In this document: piece by piece, positions 3,001 to 56,977 of the stretch
Numbering within the stretch: position 1 is the first letter of the stretch
How the letters are laid out: every line of letters begins with the position of its first letter
Assembly (NCBI GenBank): GCA_002497905.1
Contig: DAFJ01000024.1
Coordinates: 260-64,259, forward strand
Source: Euryarchaeota archaeon UBA251
GTDB taxonomy: Archaea > Thermoplasmatota > Poseidoniia > Poseidoniales > Thalassarchaeaceae
DNA: 64,000 bases
Direction: 5' to 3'
Program-made: the position numbers and the translations under genes
The notes under the pieces: generated by a model
Told to the model about the DNA's origin: nothing
Database searches by the model: none
Seen by the model: the letters and a program-made list of their open reading frames with translations, nothing else

Positions 3001-4987
3001 TCGATCCCAGTTTGTGCAGTCGAGAATTCTCTCAGAAAGGGTCGTACACAACAATTTTCAAACGGTGAATACGCAAATTAACGGGCCCCCGGTAATCACA
3101 GATATTGCTTGTTCGTCAAATGTTGTCCCACGCGGTGCTACTGTTGCTTGTTGGGTGGATGCGACGGATGATTTTGGTATGGCAACAGCTCAAATGACAA
3201 TCATCGGACCAGAAGGATTTGTCTTGATTTCGATGAATGCTCTATCGAGTGGTTCCGAACGATGGACAGCCTTCTTCGATGTTCCTGGTAATGCCACCCT
3301 TGATTTTTATGATGTACAATTCGATATTACCGACATCGATGGCGTCAATGTGACTTCAAACCTCACCGATGCTCTTGAATTCATAGATTCCCCTTCGATT
3401 TGGTATGGGATTCACATTCAGGGTGCTGATGAGAACGATTGGAACGGAGATACAAATCTTCCATCAAGCACCCCTGAAGGAATGATTCGAGGGAGAGAAG
3501 CAATCATTCGTGCTTGTGTTGAGGATGTAGATCATGATCCTATTACTGAGGCTCCTACGTTCTCTTTTGAATCCGGTGTCTTAGGGGTTGTCGTCGCTCT
3601 TCCGAAGGATCCATCATCTAGTTTTCATTGCTATGCAAGCACCTTACTCCTTCCATTAGATCAGCCATTAATCCCCATTCTTGGCCGTCTAATTGATTCA
3701 GAGGGAAATACCCAGTCAACCCGATCGATCCGCGTTGAAAACGAGGCACCAACCGTTTTGTTGACCTTTGAGAGGGAGGGTATATCGGAAGGTTTCGCAT
3801 TTGGTGTTGGAAATGAATCAGTGAGAATTTCCGTGTTGGATTTGGATGCTGTAAATGGAATGGCAAATGGTCAATTGACATTGCAATGGCCAGAGCAGGG
3901 TGAGATGAAAATCCCGTTCACGGCCATGACTGATGGTACTGATACTATCGTCCCGATTCCGATGCCTGGCCCGGGTCTGACGGCAGGTACGCTCTTACTC
4001 GATGTATCTGTTATCGATCGTGATGCAGGTCAAGCTATCCAATCTATTTCTTTACCTGTAGAGACTCGTCCACCGTCAATTTCAGAGATTAACATCTGTC
4101 GAGGAGGGGAGATATTCCCTCTAGTAAATGGTTCAATCTTGAATCGAGGTGAGGCCAATCACATGGTAGTGTCTCTCGATATCCATCGCAAGGTCTTGCA
4201 GACGACTGCATCAATTCGTCAGGCAGGGTGGAGTGAGACGCTTGATTTCTCACTTGAAACCCCTTCTAACTGTGAGGTATTAGATGCCATTGTATACACT
4301 GTGAATGTTCCTTCAGATTTCACAGAGGGGGGGGCCTCAATCGTATTGATTGCTGTGGATCAGGATGGGCTGGCCTCGGGCTGGACCGAATCGATTGAGA
4401 TTATTTTTCCCTCACCTGTAATTCACGATATTCATTGGCCATTAGGGGCTGAGGTTGGTATCCCTAGTACGATAGGGTTCAATGTAACAGATCTTGACGA
4501 CTTGTCTAGTGTTCTGTGCAATATCGATATTGTTCAAGGGAACCTTAGTATTCTATCTGTAGAGGCGTCACCCGGCCAGGAGGGTGGCATTCTTGTCGAA
4601 TGGAAACCAGGTCGACCGATGGAGAACGTCAGTGCAAGTATTGTGTGTCGAGATGAGCTTGGTCGTGTTGACGAATCCAATATCACGGGATTGAATGTCA
4701 CAGGGGAGGTGGAACTACTCATAGATGATTCATTTGAAGAAACTGAGGAACAGGCGGATGGAATTGGTTTCATGTTACCTGGTGTCGTACTCGCAGTTCT
4801 GATACTGTTGCTGTTAATTACTCAAGTATTACGCAGCGCACGTTTTACTTCGATGAAGGATGAATCCGAATCTCCTTGGATTGTTGCGGAATCCGATGCT
4901 TTACTGATGCAACTCGACACCTCTTCAATTACTGATGATGAATCTGATGTTTCGACAAATGATAGTGATGTTGTGAATGAGGATTGA
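2..4987 (+). CDS. Giant membrane-anchored surface protein (5' end outside the window) with PA14 and LamG/concanavalin-like lectin domains, a long beta-rich stalk, a C-terminal TM anchor and an acidic tail
   Basis: The frame is open from nt 2 with no stop before the ATG at 65, so the true start lies upstream. PA14-like block GLLAEYFDN..FSVRHTG..DDGVMIWIDD..HIVSWEG at ~977-1385. LamG-like block HHWDFE..LDGVDDELRV..FTISLWAK..IDEVQVWTEAL at ~1460-2030. Hydrophobic helix LPGVVLAVLILLLLITQVL at ~4770-4835. Confidence 0.85.
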   Translation, partial: GFHHTTWANYSDVAVLINNRSMDSVQIGETFAAARGIPEERIFRLTNESTPTSETINAGQFDEFFADPVREMMLNRSLGGEINYIVTTKGIPLRVNGGTNSRASFDSELALIDSAQYSPAIHANYWTEHAYGPWSDTVGDDYSSYSETPVPIFNRIDQGFYIVTRLTGYDVSTALGLIDLANESYGSRGTTVLDLATNRNSSGYQFWNDALYRADEIVNGTLGFPTEFNQNSTYLTNVDNVIQYAAWGSNDGSWGDNQLPDSGLDAPDGSTSSGIRSWEASTPVVSVGETSDWYWDDSVKKNGNGAASLSISSAPCSATNGEITSGLLAEYFDNQGLSYNSSFMPNLTNRAPNHFRSEANIDQTQVNTYWAGLDSRFADYFSVRHTGVLTIPEDGNWTIYSNADDGVMIWIDDVLVVNNSGVHGMREVGVTVNLTGGEHRFRAEFFEHGGWAGHIVSWEGPNLTKQVIPPSAFSRAMSAPIRSDILVHHWDFEAGNGTVVEDLVGDANLSMSGSPTWQSCLLGNCIHLDGVDDELRVDVDDRLGNFTISLWAKANHTGQPGYASVVAVNDVGGDFDSFQIMTSGSTPGVWQLYHNSRYDFGTVSASEWVHFVVVKDGDQLMQYMDGTLVNNITLPSGAIDEIDLYKFGVNRAGNTHWAGQIDEVQVWTEALNASDITLVNGEVALDCPSFTTVGQGLSRISTNLTIDLEQTDHAWILSGHGRSTGEINADWMLNIEAYDGNGSLLSVNSTNPTTMTPSWAQQAIRFRPHENATTLQISYEAEILNISREGTLHFDTTNLRIIRPHMGWIPGSIAETAVSTGGRSFNWGTEYGQSLIADILEDGVSGVKGYVYEPYLTAVSRPDLMTAYYASGYNLGEAYTASNGHLSWMGVVVGDPKMAPFSDQLHDVEVRNVSIPVRASANENFEIHVDVANLGASSASGWIEVRERIGNYLLTNQSITLPAGDEPGSIATLLIPVMTSTTGYVDFQVRYIADDGPILNRSQFVQSRILSERVVHNNFQTVNTQINGPPVITDIACSSNVVPRGATVACWVDATDDFGMATAQMTIIGPEGFVLISMNALSSGSERWTAFFDVPGNATLDFYDVQFDITDIDGVNVTSNLTDALEFIDSPSIWYGIHIQGADENDWNGDTNLPSSTPEGMIRGREAIIRACVEDVDHDPITEAPTFSFESGVLGVVVALPKDPSSSFHCYASTLLLPLDQPLIPILGRLIDSEGNTQSTRSIRVENEAPTVLLTFEREGISEGFAFGVGNESVRISVLDLDAVNGMANGQLTLQWPEQGEMKIPFTAMTDGTDTIVPIPMPGPGLTAGTLLLDVSVIDRDAGQAIQSISLPVETRPPSISEINICRGGEIFPLVNGSILNRGEANHMVVSLDIHRKVLQTTASIRQAGWSETLDFSLETPSNCEVLDAIVYTVNVPSDFTEGGASIVLIAVDQDGLASGWTESIEIIFPSPVIHDIHWPLGAEVGIPSTIGFNVTDLDDLSSVLCNIDIVQGNLSILSVEASPGQEGGILVEWKPGRPMENVSASIVCRDELGRVDESNITGLNVTGEVELLIDDSFEETEEQADGIGFMLPGVVLAVLILLLLITQVLRSARFTSMKDESESPWIVAESDALLMQLDTSSITDDESDVSTNDSDVVNED

Positions 4988-5019
4988 GTTGATTACTGTA
5001 GCAAAGCCTTGATTGGCTA

Positions 5020-5271
5020 ATGCCTTTATCGCCCTCCATGGCAACTGGATACGTGCTTGTGAATGTTGAACCGGGAATGGAGTTCTCTGTCTTTGAATCG
5101 GTTAAGGGACTGGATAAAGTTGCAGATGCAACTCTCCTTTTCGGCGACTATGATCTAATAATCAAGGTAATTTCAGAAGACATGTCTTCTATTGCCGCAT
5201 TTGTCGTTGAGAAAGTACGCCAAGTCGAAGGTGTTTCAAACACAAAAACACTTGCTGGCGCTGAGATTTGA
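5020..5271 (+). CDS. Stand-alone Lrp/AsnC-type ligand-binding (RAM) domain protein without an HTH
   Basis: 83-aa ORF. The pattern GYVLVNVEPG..DLIIKV..VEKVRQVEGVSNTKT is typical of the C-terminal effector domain of Lrp/AsnC regulators. ATG at 5020, alternative ATG at 5041. Confidence 0.65.
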   Translation: MPLSPSMATGYVLVNVEPGMEFSVFESVKGLDKVADATLLFGDYDLIIKVISEDMSSIAAFVVEKVRQVEGVSNTKTLAGAEI

Positions 5272-5351
5272 GCACATCGATGGACTGCGAGGAACCCCTC
5301 GGAATCCCTGAAAAACCGTTGATTTCGGAGACGTATTGCGTTTTTGTGGTT

Positions 5352-5394
5352 AAAGTTTATACGCGAGAAACCAAGCAGGTTTGTTCACAGGTGA
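5352..5394 (+). promoter_or_regulatory. Putative archaeal BRE/TATA (AAAGTTTATA, 5352-5361) and Shine-Dalgarno (AGGTGA, 5389-5394) for the MC1 gene
   Basis: The A/T-rich TTTATA lies ~40 nt upstream of the ATG at 5401. AGGTGA lies 6 nt upstream of that ATG. Confidence 0.35.
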
Positions 5395-5400
5395 AGCCTG

Positions 5401-5667
5401 ATGAGTGAAAAGAAGTACTTCGTACTAATGGAAAACGGGAAGGACACCTCCACGGTGTACCACAACAAGCAGCCCCGCCAGGCGGCCCTAAAGGCCGCCA
5501 ACAAGGGACACAAGGACATCCGTCTGCGCGAGCGCGGCACGGACAAGGTCCACGTGTTCACTGGGCAGCGCAACCAGGTGCCAAAGCCTGCTAGCGCACC
5601 TGCGTGGCTGAAGGGTGACACGGTCTGGAAGGCCAACGTCAGCAAGGTCGGCATCGAGCGCCTTTGA
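5401..5667 (+). CDS. Archaeal chromatin protein MC1 (non-histone chromosomal protein MC1 family)
   Basis: 88 aa and basic. KQPRQAALKAANKG and IRLRERGTDKVHVF match the signature segments I recall from Methanosarcina MC1 (GKQPRQAALKAANRG, IRLRERGTKKVHVF). The PAW..K..V.K..IE+L tail is also shared. Confidence 0.85.
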   Translation: MSEKKYFVLMENGKDTSTVYHNKQPRQAALKAANKGHKDIRLRERGTDKVHVFTGQRNQVPKPASAPAWLKGDTVWKANVSKVGIERL

Positions 5668-5734
5668 GCAGCTCTGCAGACACCCTCTTGGAAATAATTC
5701 CCATGAACCGCCCTTAGGGCCCAGAACATCCCCC

Positions 5735-5769
5735 GCCTTAGACCGTCGGCGTCCCCTTCGGTCTTAGGC
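5735..5769 (+). terminator. Stem-loop downstream of the MC1 gene, possibly a terminator or stability element
   Basis: GCCUUAGACCG (5735-5745) pairs with CGGUCUUAGGC (5759-5769) at 10 of 11 positions, with a 13-nt loop. A pyrimidine tract CTTCTTCTCT follows. Confidence 0.3.
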
Positions 5770-5858
5770 GAACCCCTTCTTCTCTGAATTATCCATTTGA
5801 GTTATTGGATAGAGGTTATTCTTGATAGAGTGTCTTCAGGTTTTTTTTCCTGATAGCA

Positions 5859-6440
5859 ATGCAGATGTCTCCCTTTGAATTCGTGACTATTTTCTGTTCG
5901 TTGATTCTTGGTTTGGCTCTTACGCACATCTTTCGAGCAGTATCGGATTTGTATGAAATACGTGACCGAGTCAAAACATATTGGCTCAATTCGCTTTGGG
6001 TTGTCACCGTTACTATGTGGGCGATTTACACATGGTGGGGGTTGTGGTCGCTATCTATCGATATGGATATCTGGAATTATGGACAATATTGGTTCCTGGT
6101 CGTGAATCTGTCTTCAATCTACTTTTTCACGACACTGGTCCTTCCTAAAGCAACAGATGAAGGGCAGATTAATCTTGAAAATCACTACTATTCGGTGCAC
6201 AAGGCCTTCTTTGTCATCGTAGCAATTTCGTTATTCTCATCTAGCGCGGTGAACTTTGCTCTGTTCGGGAAGGCGCTAGCTACACCTCAGGTGATTATGC
6301 CTACAATTGTGGGTTGTGCTGCTGTAGGGGCTGCCATTAACAATTCCAAGAAGTATCACCAAGTCATCGGTGTTTTCATGTTCTTGATGTTCATTGCCTT
6401 CCAGATGACAGATGAATTGGTAATCACCTTCACACCCTGA
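5859..6440 (+). CDS. Polytopic membrane protein, unknown function
   Basis: 193-aa ORF with ATG at 5859 and about six hydrophobic helices. I recognise no family motif. Confidence 0.55.
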   Translation: MQMSPFEFVTIFCSLILGLALTHIFRAVSDLYEIRDRVKTYWLNSLWVVTVTMWAIYTWWGLWSLSIDMDIWNYGQYWFLVVNLSSIYFFTTLVLPKATDEGQINLENHYYSVHKAFFVIVAISLFSSSAVNFALFGKALATPQVIMPTIVGCAAVGAAINNSKKYHQVIGVFMFLMFIAFQMTDELVITFTP

Positions 6441-6455
6441 TCGGATGCAACTTGC

Positions 6456-7223
6456 TTATTTGCGAAGACCAAGTTTCTTCGCAAGTATCGCAAGTGGGTC
6501 GTAGTATTCGGTGACTACACGTTCCTTTAACGGAATGATTGCGTTGTCTGTAATGTTAATTCCAGCAGGGCATACTTCTGTGCAGCAACGAGTAATATTA
6601 CAGTAATTGATGCCAAAATCGTCCTTTATCTCTTTCAATCGTTCTATCTTGTCAAGCGGATGCATTTCTAAACCTGCAAGTCGGACAAAGAACCTTGGAC
6701 CAACAAATTCTTCGAACATTTGGTGTTCACGCATTACATGGCATGTATTCACACATAACATGCACTCAATGCAACTTCTGAATTCTTGAATCCGATTTGC
6801 TTCGTTTTGATGGAAAACCCAATCTTTCTCATCTGGGCCTGAGATTGGCGATATTCGCTTATCTGTTTTGTAAGCCCACGATGTGTCTGTGACTAGATCG
6901 CGAAGTAGCGGAAATGATTGCATGGGTTTTATTGTAATTGGAGCAGATGGGTCAGGCATATCATGAAACACTTCGTCCATTCTAGTCATGCACATTAGTT
7001 GTGATTTTCCATTAATTTCCGCGCTGCAAGATCCACATTTACCAGCCTTACAATTCCACCTACATGCTAAATCAGGTGCGTCAGATGATTGTATTCTATG
7101 AATAACATCGAGAACAACCATACCTTCGTCTAATTCGACAGTGTAGTCGATCATTTCTCCTTGAGCGACTCCTGAATCATCAGGAGCGCCCCTGAAGACA
7201 CTGAAAGTAACTTTGTCTGCCAA
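6456..7223 (-). CDS. sdhB: Succinate dehydrogenase/fumarate reductase iron-sulfur subunit
   Basis: 2Fe-2S motif CRWNCKAGKCGSC and 4Fe-4S/3Fe-4S motifs CIECMLCVNTC and CTEVCP. The start is TTG at 7223, 2 nt after the sdhA stop. Confidence 0.9.
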   Translation of the reverse strand: MADKVTFSVFRGAPDDSGVAQGEMIDYTVELDEGMVVLDVIHRIQSSDAPDLACRWNCKAGKCGSCSAEINGKSQLMCMTRMDEVFHDMPDPSAPITIKPMQSFPLLRDLVTDTSWAYKTDKRISPISGPDEKDWVFHQNEANRIQEFRSCIECMLCVNTCHVMREHQMFEEFVGPRFFVRLAGLEMHPLDKIERLKEIKDDFGINYCNITRCCTEVCPAGINITDNAIIPLKERVVTEYYDPLAILAKKLGLRK

Positions 7224-11958: not shown

Positions 11959-14181
11959 ATGGCAGGAGCAGATGAATCAGTGACTCTCCGTGTTGCGAAA
12001 GCAATTCCCAGTGATGTTGGACATGGCCGAGCTCGTGTCCCATTCAACAATGATCTTGATCTGAAGCCAGGTGATATCATCGAGATATCTGGCGAGAACA
12101 AGACGGCTGCAGTTGTATGGCGATGTCGGCCAGAGGATGCTAATCTTGGTGTCATCCGAATAGATGGCATCATCCGAAAGAACGCAGGGGTTAGCCTTGG
12201 CGACCGTGTCGATATCAGTAAGGTCGAGGTCAAGAAGTGTGAACGCCTCGTTCTTTCTCCAGTTATGGCTAAGCAGCAGAAGGTCCGCTTTGGACCAGGT
12301 ATCGAAGGATTTGCTCGCCGAGGTTTGAACAAGAGACCAGTTGTAGCCGGGGATCGGATTTTCATCCCTGGTATGACTCTATTTGCTGAGGCCCTCCCCT
12401 TCGCAATCGTAAGCACTCGACCCAAGGGTATCGTACAAGTCGCGCCAGAGACGGAGATTGTAATCAAAGAGGAGATACTAGACGAGGAAGAGGATGCTGC
12501 TGGTCATCAAATCGCGTACGAAGATATCGGCGGCTTGGGCAATCAACTCCAGAAAGTCCGAGAGATGATTGAACTCCCACTCAAGCATCCGATTCTGTTT
12601 CGCAGGCTGGGTATAGATCCACCCAAAGGTGTGCTCCTTCATGGTCCGCCTGGAACAGGAAAGACGATGATTGCCAAGGCGGTTGCTTCTGAGACACAAG
12701 CCCATTTCACTTCGATTAACGGTCCAGAGATTATCTCGAAGTATTATGGTGAATCGGAGAAGCAACTCAGAGAGATTTTCGATGAAGCTACTCAAAATGC
12801 TCCTGCGATTATTTTCATTGATGAATTGGATAGTATTGCCCCTAAGCGAGAAGACGTCACAGGGGAGGTAGAGCGTCGTGTTGTCGCGCAACTACTGACA
12901 TTGATGGATGGTATGCATGGACGTGACAATGTCATCGTAATCGGGGCAACGAATCGTCGTGATGCGATTGATCAGGCCCTACGGCGCCCCGGTCGATTCG
13001 ATCGTGAACTTGAAATTGGCGTGCCAGACAAGGAAGGTCGACGCGAGATAGTTGACATCCACACGCGTGGTATGCCAATTAGTGACGATTTTGAGATAGA
13101 ATGGGTCCTCGAGAATACTTACGGTTTCGTTGGCGCAGACATCAATGCCCTCGTTCGAGAGGCCGCCATGAAGGCTCTTCGGCGCTATCTTCCGGAAATC
13201 GACCTAGATGAGGAAGAGATTGCACCCGAGGTTCTTGAGAAGATGGAGGTTCAGATGAACGATTTCAAGGAGGCGATAAAGGATATCGAACCCAGTGCAC
13301 TGAGAGAGATTTATGTCGAGATTCCAGAGGTATCATGGGACCAGGTAGGCGGTCTTCATGAGATTAAAGATCGGCTTAAGGAGAGTATTGAATGGCCATT
13401 GACTCAGCCAGAGTTGTTCGAGCATTTTGGTGTGAAACCTCCTAGAGGTGTAATCCTCTTTGGTGCACCCGGTACTGGGAAGACCCTCCTTGCAAAGGCA
13501 ATTGCGAATGAAGCGAAGGCGAATTTCATCTCTATCAAGGGTCCAGAGATGATTTCGAAATGGGTGGGGGAATCCGAACGAGGTATTCGTGAGGTGTTCA
13601 AGAAGGCTAAGCAAGCCTCACCTAGCATCATTTTCCTCGATGAATTCGAATCAATCGCAGGTGCTCGTGTTGAGAATAGGGGCGAAGGTAGCGACGTGAT
13701 GAATCGTGTCGTCAACCAACTCTTAGCTTCAATGGACGGTGTCGAAGCCCTAGATGGAGTCATTGTCATTGCAGCAACAAACCGTCCTGAAATGATTGAC
13801 CCAGCACTTCTCCGGTCGGGTCGTTTCGAACGGGTCCTGCACGTCCCTCCGCCAGATGAGGAATCTATCCGTGAGATTTTGAAGATCCATACTGATGGTA
13901 TGCCAATTGGAAAGTTCTCTCTGGATGATATGGCGAAGCCGTTGGCTGGATATACCGGAGCAGATATCGAGGCAATTTGTCGTGAAGCCGCTCTTATCGC
14001 CATGAGGGCAAAGAGGAAGACAATTACTCGTAAGCACTTTGAGGAGGCTATCGATAGAGTTCGTCCTACTGTGACACCTCAGATGATGGAGTATTACGAA
14101 AAGCTTCAATCGATGCTTACCAGTGGACTTGATTCTATTCGACGTAATAATGACGGTCTTCGTGGGATTGAATCGGTGTGA
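11959..14181 (+). CDS. cdc48: Cdc48/VCP/p97-type AAA+ ATPase with two ATPase domains
   Basis: N-domain followed by two AAA modules. Walker A GPPGTGKT and GAPGTGKT; Walker B IIFIDELD and IIFLDEFE; 740 aa. Confidence 0.95.
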
Positions 14182-56480: not shown

Positions 56481-56729
56481 TCAAAGTTCGCCAGCCTGCT
56501 CACGCAAGCGCCAGACACAAATGTCGTATCGGCCGGAGAGTGCTCCACCGCGCTTCGTAGTCGAGACCTTCTCGATGTCCTTGTCCTTGGACAGAACATT
56601 CCCCAATTGCTGAGGGGTGGTTCCGTGTCGAGTCGTGGTATTCACGTGCTCGAGGATTTCAGTTGTGTTAGCCTCGCCCTTTTCGGCGAGGAATCTCTTG
56701 ATGCGTTCTCGTAGTCTTGTAGTTCTCAT
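56481..56729 (-). CDS. Small winged-helix-like DNA-binding protein (paralog B)
   Basis: 82 aa. RIKRFLAEKGEANTTEILEHV..LSGRYDICVW. ATGA overlap with paralog A. Confidence 0.55.
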   Translation of the reverse strand: MRTTRLRERIKRFLAEKGEANTTEILEHVNTTTRHGTTPQQLGNVLSKDKDIEKVSTTKRGGALSGRYDICVWRLREQAGEL

Positions 56730-56977
56730 TGTTGTTCCCTCCTATTGGTCATCCAATCGACAGAGGCCCATTCGCAGATTCTGTAGCCGGAAGAGAGCAC
56801 ACCACTCCTACGTACGAGATCGACACGGACGACCTGAGAATCAGCTCGAAGCATCTTCTCAATCTCCTCTAGGCTCGCACTATTGCCATTAGCGTGTGCG
56901 TGCTCTGCAATCTCGGACGTATTCCGAGGTTTATTCTGGAGGTAGGATCGAATTAGAATTCTAAGATTCTCGCTCAT
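56726..56977 (-). CDS. Small winged-helix-like DNA-binding protein (paralog A)
   Basis: 83 aa. IRSYLQNKPRNTSEIAEHA..LSSGYRICEW shares the [ST][ST]EI.EH and LS.GY.IC.W motifs with the neighbour. Confidence 0.55.
   Translation of the reverse strand: MSENLRILIRSYLQNKPRNTSEIAEHAHANGNSASLEEIEKMLRADSQVVRVDLVRRSGVLSSGYRICEWASVDWMTNRREQQ

Follow-up and report, generated by a model that had tools for sequence, protein, structure and literature searches.

The chromatin protein MC1, a small basic monomer, bends DNA and makes it more compact. It also occurs in Marine Group II, whose members are among the most abundant archaea of the surface ocean; to our knowledge none of them is in culture, so the cell biology of the group has to be read from sequence. 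According to the main text of the survey by Hocher et al. 2022 (Nat Microbiol, PMC7613761), most Marine Group II archaea encode MC1 and other Diaforarchaea do not, the gene was probably gained by an old horizontal transfer, and the loss of histones and Alba dates back to the root of the wider clade. The MC1 gene and its distribution in Marine Group II are thus already known. Here we analyze the MC1 gene of Euryarchaeota archaeon UBA251 (assembly GCA_002497905.1), a member of the Thalassarchaeaceae, the family that corresponds to Marine Group II b. The window is a 64,000-nucleotide stretch of contig DAFJ01000024.1, and the gene lies on its forward strand at 5401..5667 (88 codons plus stop) with a GC content at third codon positions (GC3) of 0.818. 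We consider it probable that this gene is vertically inherited and owes its extreme GC3 to selection on synonymous sites that is tied to very high expression. What the analysis adds is a measured, genus-wide codon bias with synonymous constraint beyond that of EF-1alpha, the exclusion of a recent transfer, and an explanation for the GC-rich flank of the gene. Codon usage, synonymous constraint and flanking signals of MC1, all measured here, are not mentioned in the passages of Hocher et al. 2022 (PMC7613761) that were consulted, and the portion of the literature searched yielded no study of how MC1 codons are used in Marine Group II. In other respects the gene is ordinary: the family is known, the lineage has been reported, and the bias is of a known kind.

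The closest structurally described relative is MC1 of Methanosarcina thermophila (PDB 1T23, 2KHL, 2NBJ; Pfam family PF05854), which profile and pairwise searches place in the same family as the protein encoded here. In the profile search, PF05854 (non-histone chromosomal protein MC1) was matched with an E-value of 8e-26 and 90.6 bits against a cut-off of 23, with residues 3-88 covering positions 1-95 of the 96 in the profile; it is the sole Pfam domain of the protein and was recovered at 89.7 bits when the whole genome was searched. Chain A of 1T23, a solved MC1, was matched with an E-value of 2.3e-14, query residues 5-88 aligning with chain residues 4-92. An original prediction made from the letters of the window had called the 88-residue open reading frame (ORF) an MC1 homolog, and both searches bear this out; the range it gave, 5272-5800, comprises the coding sequence (CDS) and both flanks. 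The two proteins are similar in size (88 residues here, 93 in M. thermophila) and both are strongly basic, the translation here containing 12 Lys and 6 Arg against 4 Asp and 4 Glu. They have the motifs KQPRQAALKAAN, LRERGT.KVHVF and PAW in common. The protein here differs in lacking the insert of 5-6 residues that follows ...ANRG in Methanosarcina MC1 and in having Leu where the latter has Met after the conserved Trp, and its host, an aerobic marine heterotroph, belongs to a different phylum. Across an alignment of 35 MC1 sequences, haloarchaeal ones included, residues P25, R26, A28, A29, L30, K31, A32, L42, R43 and E44 are invariant, as are the motifs PRxAALKA and LRE, with RG and W69 nearly so; the invariant residues also align with 1T23. 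In the MC1 fold, which consists of beta sheets and one helix with a protruding arm, PRxAALKA belongs to the helix, LRERG to a strand and the conserved Trp to the long arm. An AlphaFold2 model built on this alignment has a mean predicted local distance difference test (pLDDT) score of 92.0 and the order of elements expected for the MC1 fold, strand-strand-helix-strand-strand-strand. A Foldseek search of the PDB with this model gave no match at E <= 0.001, and VIA-align placed 1T23 model 1 only at rank 21 with a weak superposition (Z 3.2, root-mean-square deviation 4.1 A over 66 residues). Because the fold searches did not single out MC1, the assignment of 5401..5667 to MC1 rests on sequence; sharp bending of DNA would be a predicted property of the protein described here. 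In Methanosarcina, MC1 copies number of the order of one for every 100-200 bp of DNA.

The codon usage of the gene sets it apart from the rest of the genome, which is a 1.76-Mb metagenome-assembled genome (MAG) of 100 contigs with a GC content of 0.48 and a completeness of about 80%. The original prediction had counted 72 of 88 codons ending in G or C, and this number is exact (38 C, 34 G, 8 A, 8 T). Mean GC3 of the genome is about 0.44, and it is 0.45 in a crude set of 1474 ORFs of at least 60 residues. None of the 1474 attains 0.818, the top value being 0.763 for an ORF that is the antisense shadow of MC1 itself. The claim that neighboring genes are low at third positions also holds: the 55 other ORFs of the window average 0.452 +/- 0.052 with a maximum of 0.61, the two genes adjacent to MC1 (0.82) have values of 0.39 and 0.52, and in a 740-residue ORF at 11959..14181, which the original prediction labeled cdc48, exactly 9 of the first 30 codons end in G or C. 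Comparison with ribosomal-protein genes, which had been proposed as the test that could remove the anomaly, leaves it standing. For 31 ribosomal proteins (those confirmed by Pfam among 38 basic proteins submitted), GC3 was 0.524 +/- 0.060 with a range of only 0.37-0.67, and EF-1alpha was at 0.61. When the amino acids of MC1 were held fixed, 40.0 +/- 4.5 codons ending in G or C were expected under background usage and 49.2 +/- 4.3 under ribosomal-protein usage; 72 was reached in none of 20,000 draws under either model, the maxima being 58 and 66, respectively. MC1 also ranked first for per-codon GC3 excess (0.368, the next value being 0.239) among the ORFs of at least 60 codons in a score-based set of 1355. 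The genes that follow it near the top comprise, among others, EF-1alpha, ribosomal proteins such as L11, subunits of the ATP synthase and an archaeal pilin, and MC1 lies at the far end of this expression-linked codon axis of the genome.

The bias is found throughout the genus. In 14 loci with a flank GC of 0.37-0.47, MC1 GC3 was 0.63-0.82, and it exceeded the GC3 of EF-1alpha by 0.19-0.29 in all 10 genomes that have a complete EF-1alpha gene. On a log-odds scale the difference was nearly constant: logit GC3 of MC1 minus logit GC3 of EF-1alpha was 1.05 +/- 0.08 (range 0.92-1.21) in these 10 genomes, even though EF-1alpha GC3 itself ranged from 0.38 to 0.62, and the high-GC and low-GC subclades of the genus agreed on the offset. 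A constant log-odds step above a shifting background is what the mutation-selection balance model predicts. Synonymous sites of MC1 also change slowly. Third-position differences were found at 0.19 of eligible codons in MC1 versus 0.48 in the adjacent upstream gene (45 pairs pooled), and at 0.20 versus 0.38 in the comparison with EF-1alpha (36 pairs pooled), MC1 having the lower value in all 36.

Distribution and phylogeny indicate that the gene is vertically inherited. MC1 was detected in all 41 Poseidoniales genomes searched, which represent 3 families and 16 genera, and its sequence identity falls with kinship, from 91-100% inside the genus to 59-78% outside it. Among 300 other genomes sampled from the phylum, MC1 was present in 21 of 21 members of the window's own family and in 41 of 42 members of the other main Poseidoniales family, and in 1 of 237 genomes from all other families, a distribution that agrees with the survey of Hocher et al. 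2022 (PMC7613761) as given in its main text. A phylogeny of MC1, which the original prediction had suggested as a check, was built by maximum likelihood from 42 sequences. It united all Marine Group II MC1 proteins in one clade (support 100/99), in which the genus was monophyletic (99/96) and sister to a genus of high GC content (100/96). Gene order is kept as well. The upstream neighbor at 5038..5271 on the forward strand encodes a stand-alone Lrp/AsnC ligand-binding (RAM) domain (Pfam PF01037, E 2.5e-12) of about 77 residues, counted from the conserved start MATGYVL, and has no DNA-binding part. It lies about 130 bp upstream of MC1 in 10 of the 10 genus loci compared, where its GC3 is 0.22-0.46.

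Two MC1 sequences not assigned to the order were noted in passing. The sole match among the 237 genomes from other families, found in a 4-Mb genome of another family of the same phylum, is extended at its N-terminus by a lysine-rich segment; in the tree it diverges at the base of the Marine Group II clade. The second is carried at positions 932-1192 of a 2.7-kb contig (GC 0.73) from a MAG labeled Deltaproteobacteria; its GC3 is 0.97, and it forms a long branch among the Marine Group II sequences. This contig is either mis-binned or the product of a transfer.

Work by Sharp and Li and by Bulmer reportedly established that highly expressed prokaryotic genes combine codon bias with low synonymous divergence, an outcome of translational selection in balance with mutation. 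MC1 resembles such genes in several ways. At two-fold sites ending in a pyrimidine it uses C at 18 of 19 positions (C share 0.55 in ribosomal proteins, 0.75 in EF-1alpha and 0.42 in the background), and at Lys, Glu and Gln codons it uses G at 18 of 20 (0.74, 0.82 and 0.48, respectively), so that the ribosomal preference is followed at two-fold sites; synonymous divergence is reduced, and the log-odds offset is constant over a shifting background. It is unlike the classical cases in that the top gene is a chromatin protein that stands well above EF-1alpha and every ribosomal protein tested. We infer that MC1 is very highly expressed and that its codon choice is of benefit in translation. Under this explanation, very high expression would impose strong selection on the synonymous sites of MC1; at two-fold codons the gene would come to contain almost only the variants that ribosomal and EF-1alpha genes prefer (C over T, AAG and CAG), and selection would balance the background base composition of each species to give the fixed step above EF-1alpha across the genus. 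Signals flank the gene on both sides: a putative promoter, also conserved, and a Shine-Dalgarno sequence precede it, and behind it come a conserved 3' hairpin and then a pyrimidine tract. The hairpin accounts for the GC-rich 3' flank. Of the two causes put forward in the original prediction, selection on a very highly expressed gene is therefore the one that fits, and a recent high-GC donor is contradicted by the distribution of MC1, its single clade and its conserved neighbor. RNA-library contigs from two studies, at positions given below, extend over MC1. Taken as a proxy for expression, the codon bias would make MC1 the most strongly selected gene of the genus and probably the source of its most abundant product. 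Its position above EF-1alpha and every ribosomal protein tested, in a genome with no match for histone, Alba or HU, supports the published view of MC1 as the chromatin backbone of the clade and makes that view testable with metaproteomes.

Several observations weigh against this explanation, and some of them concern the data on which it draws. The gene sets came from a home-made ORF caller applied to a MAG that is 80% complete, and the genomes of the genus are kin, so that counts such as 10 of 10 and 36 of 36 overstate independence. In many other Marine Group II genera, MC1 GC3 rises far less above the GC content of the flanks, and in three of those genera the difference is close to zero. The four RNA-library runs that were compared all consist of contigs, which cannot rank genes. 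In one run, a 556-nt contig with 98% identity covers 5085-5640 and bridges the RAM-domain gene and MC1, although a contig does not establish co-transcription; a run from another study contains two identical contigs over 5396-5691; the remaining two have contigs on neighboring genes and none listed on MC1, a gap that proves nothing. In a coastal metatranscriptome, the available part of Damashek et al. 2021 places MC1 in the top 5% of genes by transcription for a Marine Group II a MAG but not for two MGIIb MAGs of other genera.

The remaining objections come from the sites themselves. At the 43 four-fold sites of MC1, the share of G is 0.28 versus 0.12 in ribosomal proteins (binomial p 0.004) and 0.10 in EF-1alpha, and the share of T is 0.16 versus 0.37 (p 0.004) and 0.38. 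Because of this departure, part of the GC excess does not follow the usual translational preference, and the MC1 bias is more than a stronger version of what ribosomal proteins show. Non-preferred codons, GTA, CTA, GGG and GGA among them, are invariant across the genus. In a comparison of nine genomes, variation was seen at 9 of the 34 eligible codons in codons 1-37 and at 25 of 37 in codons 38-88, as compared with 272 of 354 in EF-1alpha; synonymous variation in the first 37 codons is thus about one third that of EF-1alpha overall, and of 80 windows of 37 codons in EF-1alpha none has less than 0.56 of its codons varying. Such a concentration of constraint in codons 1-37 is not predicted by codon optimization alone. 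Together with the preference for G and avoidance of T at four-fold sites, it distinguishes MC1 from classical targets of translational selection, and the near-frozen first 37 codons and the excess of four-fold G are left unaccounted for by selection linked to expression. Only 27 tRNA genes were found in the incomplete MAG, too small a set for the tRNA repertoire to be used in explaining codon choice.

These features could have another origin if the 5' part of the MC1 CDS, and possibly the whole message, were constrained as RNA or DNA rather than through codon optimization. Candidates for such a second function are control of translation or stability by a structure in the mRNA and a DNA site for autoregulation, either of which would freeze synonymous sites at G or C. 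The paucity of variation in codons 1-37 and the invariant non-preferred codons speak for it, as does the fold of the first 133 nt of the putative mRNA, which is better than that of shuffled sequences (z -2.13; 4 of 200 shuffles as good), and there is true covariation in a hairpin of the 3' untranslated region (UTR) described below. However, structure over the whole CDS was not significant when compared with 200 synonymous-codon shuffles (z -1.55; 17 of 200 as low). Double changes were found in just 3 of the 63 pairs of the CDS consensus fold, and these three (G-C to A-U) fall together with the shift toward AT in the low-GC subclade, so they do not count as independent evidence. No Rfam family was matched at gathering score; a limit of E up to 10 admitted just two matches, both inside the CDS and with 12-14 bits where 40-57 would be needed. 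Moreover, a constraint of this kind leaves the close ribosomal-like preference at two-fold sites unexplained, and as a replacement for codon optimization we judge it unlikely. The wider proposition that the MC1 message is under nucleotide-level selection beyond codon optimization, as would be reflected in the frozen non-preferred codons and the G-ending four-fold codons, is one we hold to be rather doubtful. Were it correct, the 5' third of MC1 would double as a control element, either through a structure in the mRNA that determines how much of the main chromatin protein is made or through a DNA site by which MC1 senses its own level.

The high GC3 might instead be a slowly decaying relic, inherited either from the donor of an ancient transfer or from a high-GC ancestor of the genus and its sister genus. 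The sister genus that groups with it has a flank GC of 0.60-0.64, an MC1 GC3 of 0.84-0.875 and a four-fold G share of 0.40, and the four-fold pattern of MC1, rich in C and G, is closer to that of a high-GC genome than to that of the ribosomal proteins here. The ancient horizontal origin of Marine Group II MC1 inferred in the main text of Hocher et al. 2022 (PMC7613761) would also provide a donor. Against this, neutral sites would have caught up by now: the RAM-domain neighbor, with its low GC3, is near saturation at 0.48, which means that slow decay in MC1 alone would need selection anyway. The constancy of the 1.05 +/- 0.08 offset in high-GC and low-GC subclades is more in line with an equilibrium than with a relic in decay. 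Little or no excess is seen in the MC1 genes of other Marine Group II lineages. We therefore regard a compositional legacy as quite unlikely, and selection linked to expression as the better account of the bias.

A small GC island acquired recently from a donor of high GC content would explain the sharp step in GC3 between MC1 and its neighbors and the somewhat GC-rich 3' flank (0.569). It is very improbable, and we reject it together with the notion of a genomic island, because MC1 is present in all 41 genomes of the order, with identity falling as kinship does, forms one clade in which the genus is monophyletic, has kept both its upstream neighbor and its bias in the genus loci compared, and is surrounded by sequence of ordinary composition, the 5' flank and the whole downstream spacer having the median intergenic GC. 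No tRNA gene was found in 4500-6500, a region in which no search for repeats or mobile-element genes was made. GC3 outliers of the kind represented by MC1 should not be scored as horizontal transfers.

It is hardly credible that the antisense ORF at 5385..5729 on the reverse strand is a real overlapping gene whose open frame drives the avoidance of T-ending codons in MC1, since, although it is stop-free inside the CDS in 13 of 13 readable genus loci (one locus being cut off) and by rough arithmetic would be left open by ribosomal-protein codon usage only about 1.5% of the time, its coding log-odds are -20.1 versus +6.5 for MC1, a Pfam search at E up to 1 gave no family for it, its start codon (the ATG at 5729) lacks conservation, 4 of 30 orthologous loci, the sister genus included, have stops in its frame within the CDS, and its third codon positions coincide with those of MC1 and so cannot cause the lack of synonymous transitions. 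The frame is open because MC1 has few T-ending codons. At 114 residues this shadow ORF is longer than MC1 with its 88 and was chosen over it by the first, length-based caller, which makes the locus easy to mis-annotate.

The 3' flank had been described as sharing the GC-rich character of the gene. This is weakly so for 5668-5790, where GC content is 0.569, a value equaled or exceeded by 7.5% of 174 intergenic stretches, and does not extend beyond the hairpins. The whole spacer (5668-5858; GC 0.487) and the 5' flank (5272-5400; 0.481) are both at the intergenic median, and GC-richness outside the CDS is therefore confined to the hairpin region; it represents a conserved terminator-like hairpin and not a compositional island. 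The hairpin in question, at 5734..5770, is the second of two on the forward strand in the 3' UTR. The original prediction had placed a 10/11-bp hairpin at 5735-5769, which is correct: 10 of 11 positions pair between arms 5735-5745 and 5759-5769, and C5734-G5770 adds a further pair. RNAalifold analysis of 12 genus sequences predicted 14 pairs, 5 of them compensatory (both sides changed, pairing kept), and a single-sequence fold of 5668-5800 had a z of -2.31. Upstream of it, at 5710..5720, lies a smaller GCCC-loop-GGGC hairpin with a stem that is invariant and a loop that varies in the 12 sequences; as covariation is absent, conservation is what supports it. The second hairpin is followed directly by the pyrimidine/T-rich tract CCCCTTCTTCTCT at 5773..5785 on the same strand, and most of the 12 sequences have a C-run and then a T-rich run at this place. 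Archaeal termination uses oligo-T, and the tract is likely a termination signal. Hairpin and tract would together form the 3' end of the transcript (a terminator), predicted at 5770-5785, or a stabilizer of it. Both this species and its closest relative have a T8 run (5841-5848) 10 nt ahead of the next gene, which starts at 5859; the run could serve MC1 as its true oligo-T terminator or belong to the leader of the neighbor. A non-coding RNA in the GC-rich flank was considered and dropped, with no Rfam family matched at gathering score and no tRNA. A scan for bacterial-type promoters and terminators, which is not designed for archaea, identified nothing at the MC1 flanks.

Conserved elements also precede the gene on its own strand. 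At 5349..5361 there is a putative archaeal promoter with the purine-rich sequence GTTAAAG, like a B recognition element (BRE), followed by a TATA-like TTTATA; it resembles the archaeal BRE/TATA consensus, and its position is conserved in the genus alignment. Transcription is predicted to start some 13-18 nt ahead of the ATG. A Shine-Dalgarno-like GGTGA is located at 5390..5394, 6 nt before the ATG. The surrounding AGGTGAA is invariant in the 12 genus sequences, and the single-sequence fold puts the Shine-Dalgarno-like motif into a small local hairpin. A box with the sequence GGAGACGTAT(T/C)(G/A)CG (5327..5340) precedes the BRE/TATA element by about 10 nt and is nearly invariant in the 12 sequences, while the spacer around it has diverged. 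It may be the site of a regulator. We rejected it as a genome-wide motif, given that its 10-mer has only 4 exact copies in the genome, which by our own arithmetic is about the level of chance. A pairing of the box with the Shine-Dalgarno region proposed by RNAalifold was discarded, as the box precedes the putative TATA.

As to other chromatin proteins, profiles for the histone fold, Alba and HU had no match in this genome (80% complete), making MC1 the only one found here of the four chromatin-protein families tested. This agrees with the suggestion in the original prediction that MC1 is a possible major chromatin protein of the lineage, a view already in print for Marine Group II (PMC7613761, main text), and answers with a negative its question about histone or Alba genes elsewhere in the genome. 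In 81 genomes of the order, HU was found in none and a histone fold above cut-off in one, inside an ORF of 279 residues. Alba was found in 36 of the 81: in 31 of 39 members of the other main family and in 4 of 40 of the window's own family, in two genera, with none in this genus. These chromatin-protein searches accord with the survey of Hocher et al. 2022 (PMC7613761). Because Alba is common in the one and rare in the other, the two Poseidoniales families differ in their set of chromatin proteins. A link between the loss of Alba and the MC1 bias was looked for and was not clean, as two other genera without Alba have an excess of only about +0.13.

Two further kinds of small basic protein were observed in this genome. 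One is a lysine-rich protein of 134 residues encoded on the reverse strand of another contig (11854-12258); it has a helix-hairpin-helix domain (PF14520, E 2e-7), a long Lys/Ala tail and a GC3 of 0.52, and is a candidate nucleoid protein. The others are encoded by two tandem DUF3860 (PF12976) genes in the window at 56481-56977 on the reverse strand, with products of 82 and 83 residues, and by a third copy on another contig. The first gene of the tandem has a GC3 of 0.61, the highest of the window after MC1, and ranks 8th in the genome for per-codon GC3 excess; the DUF3860 proteins may be abundant DNA-binding proteins.

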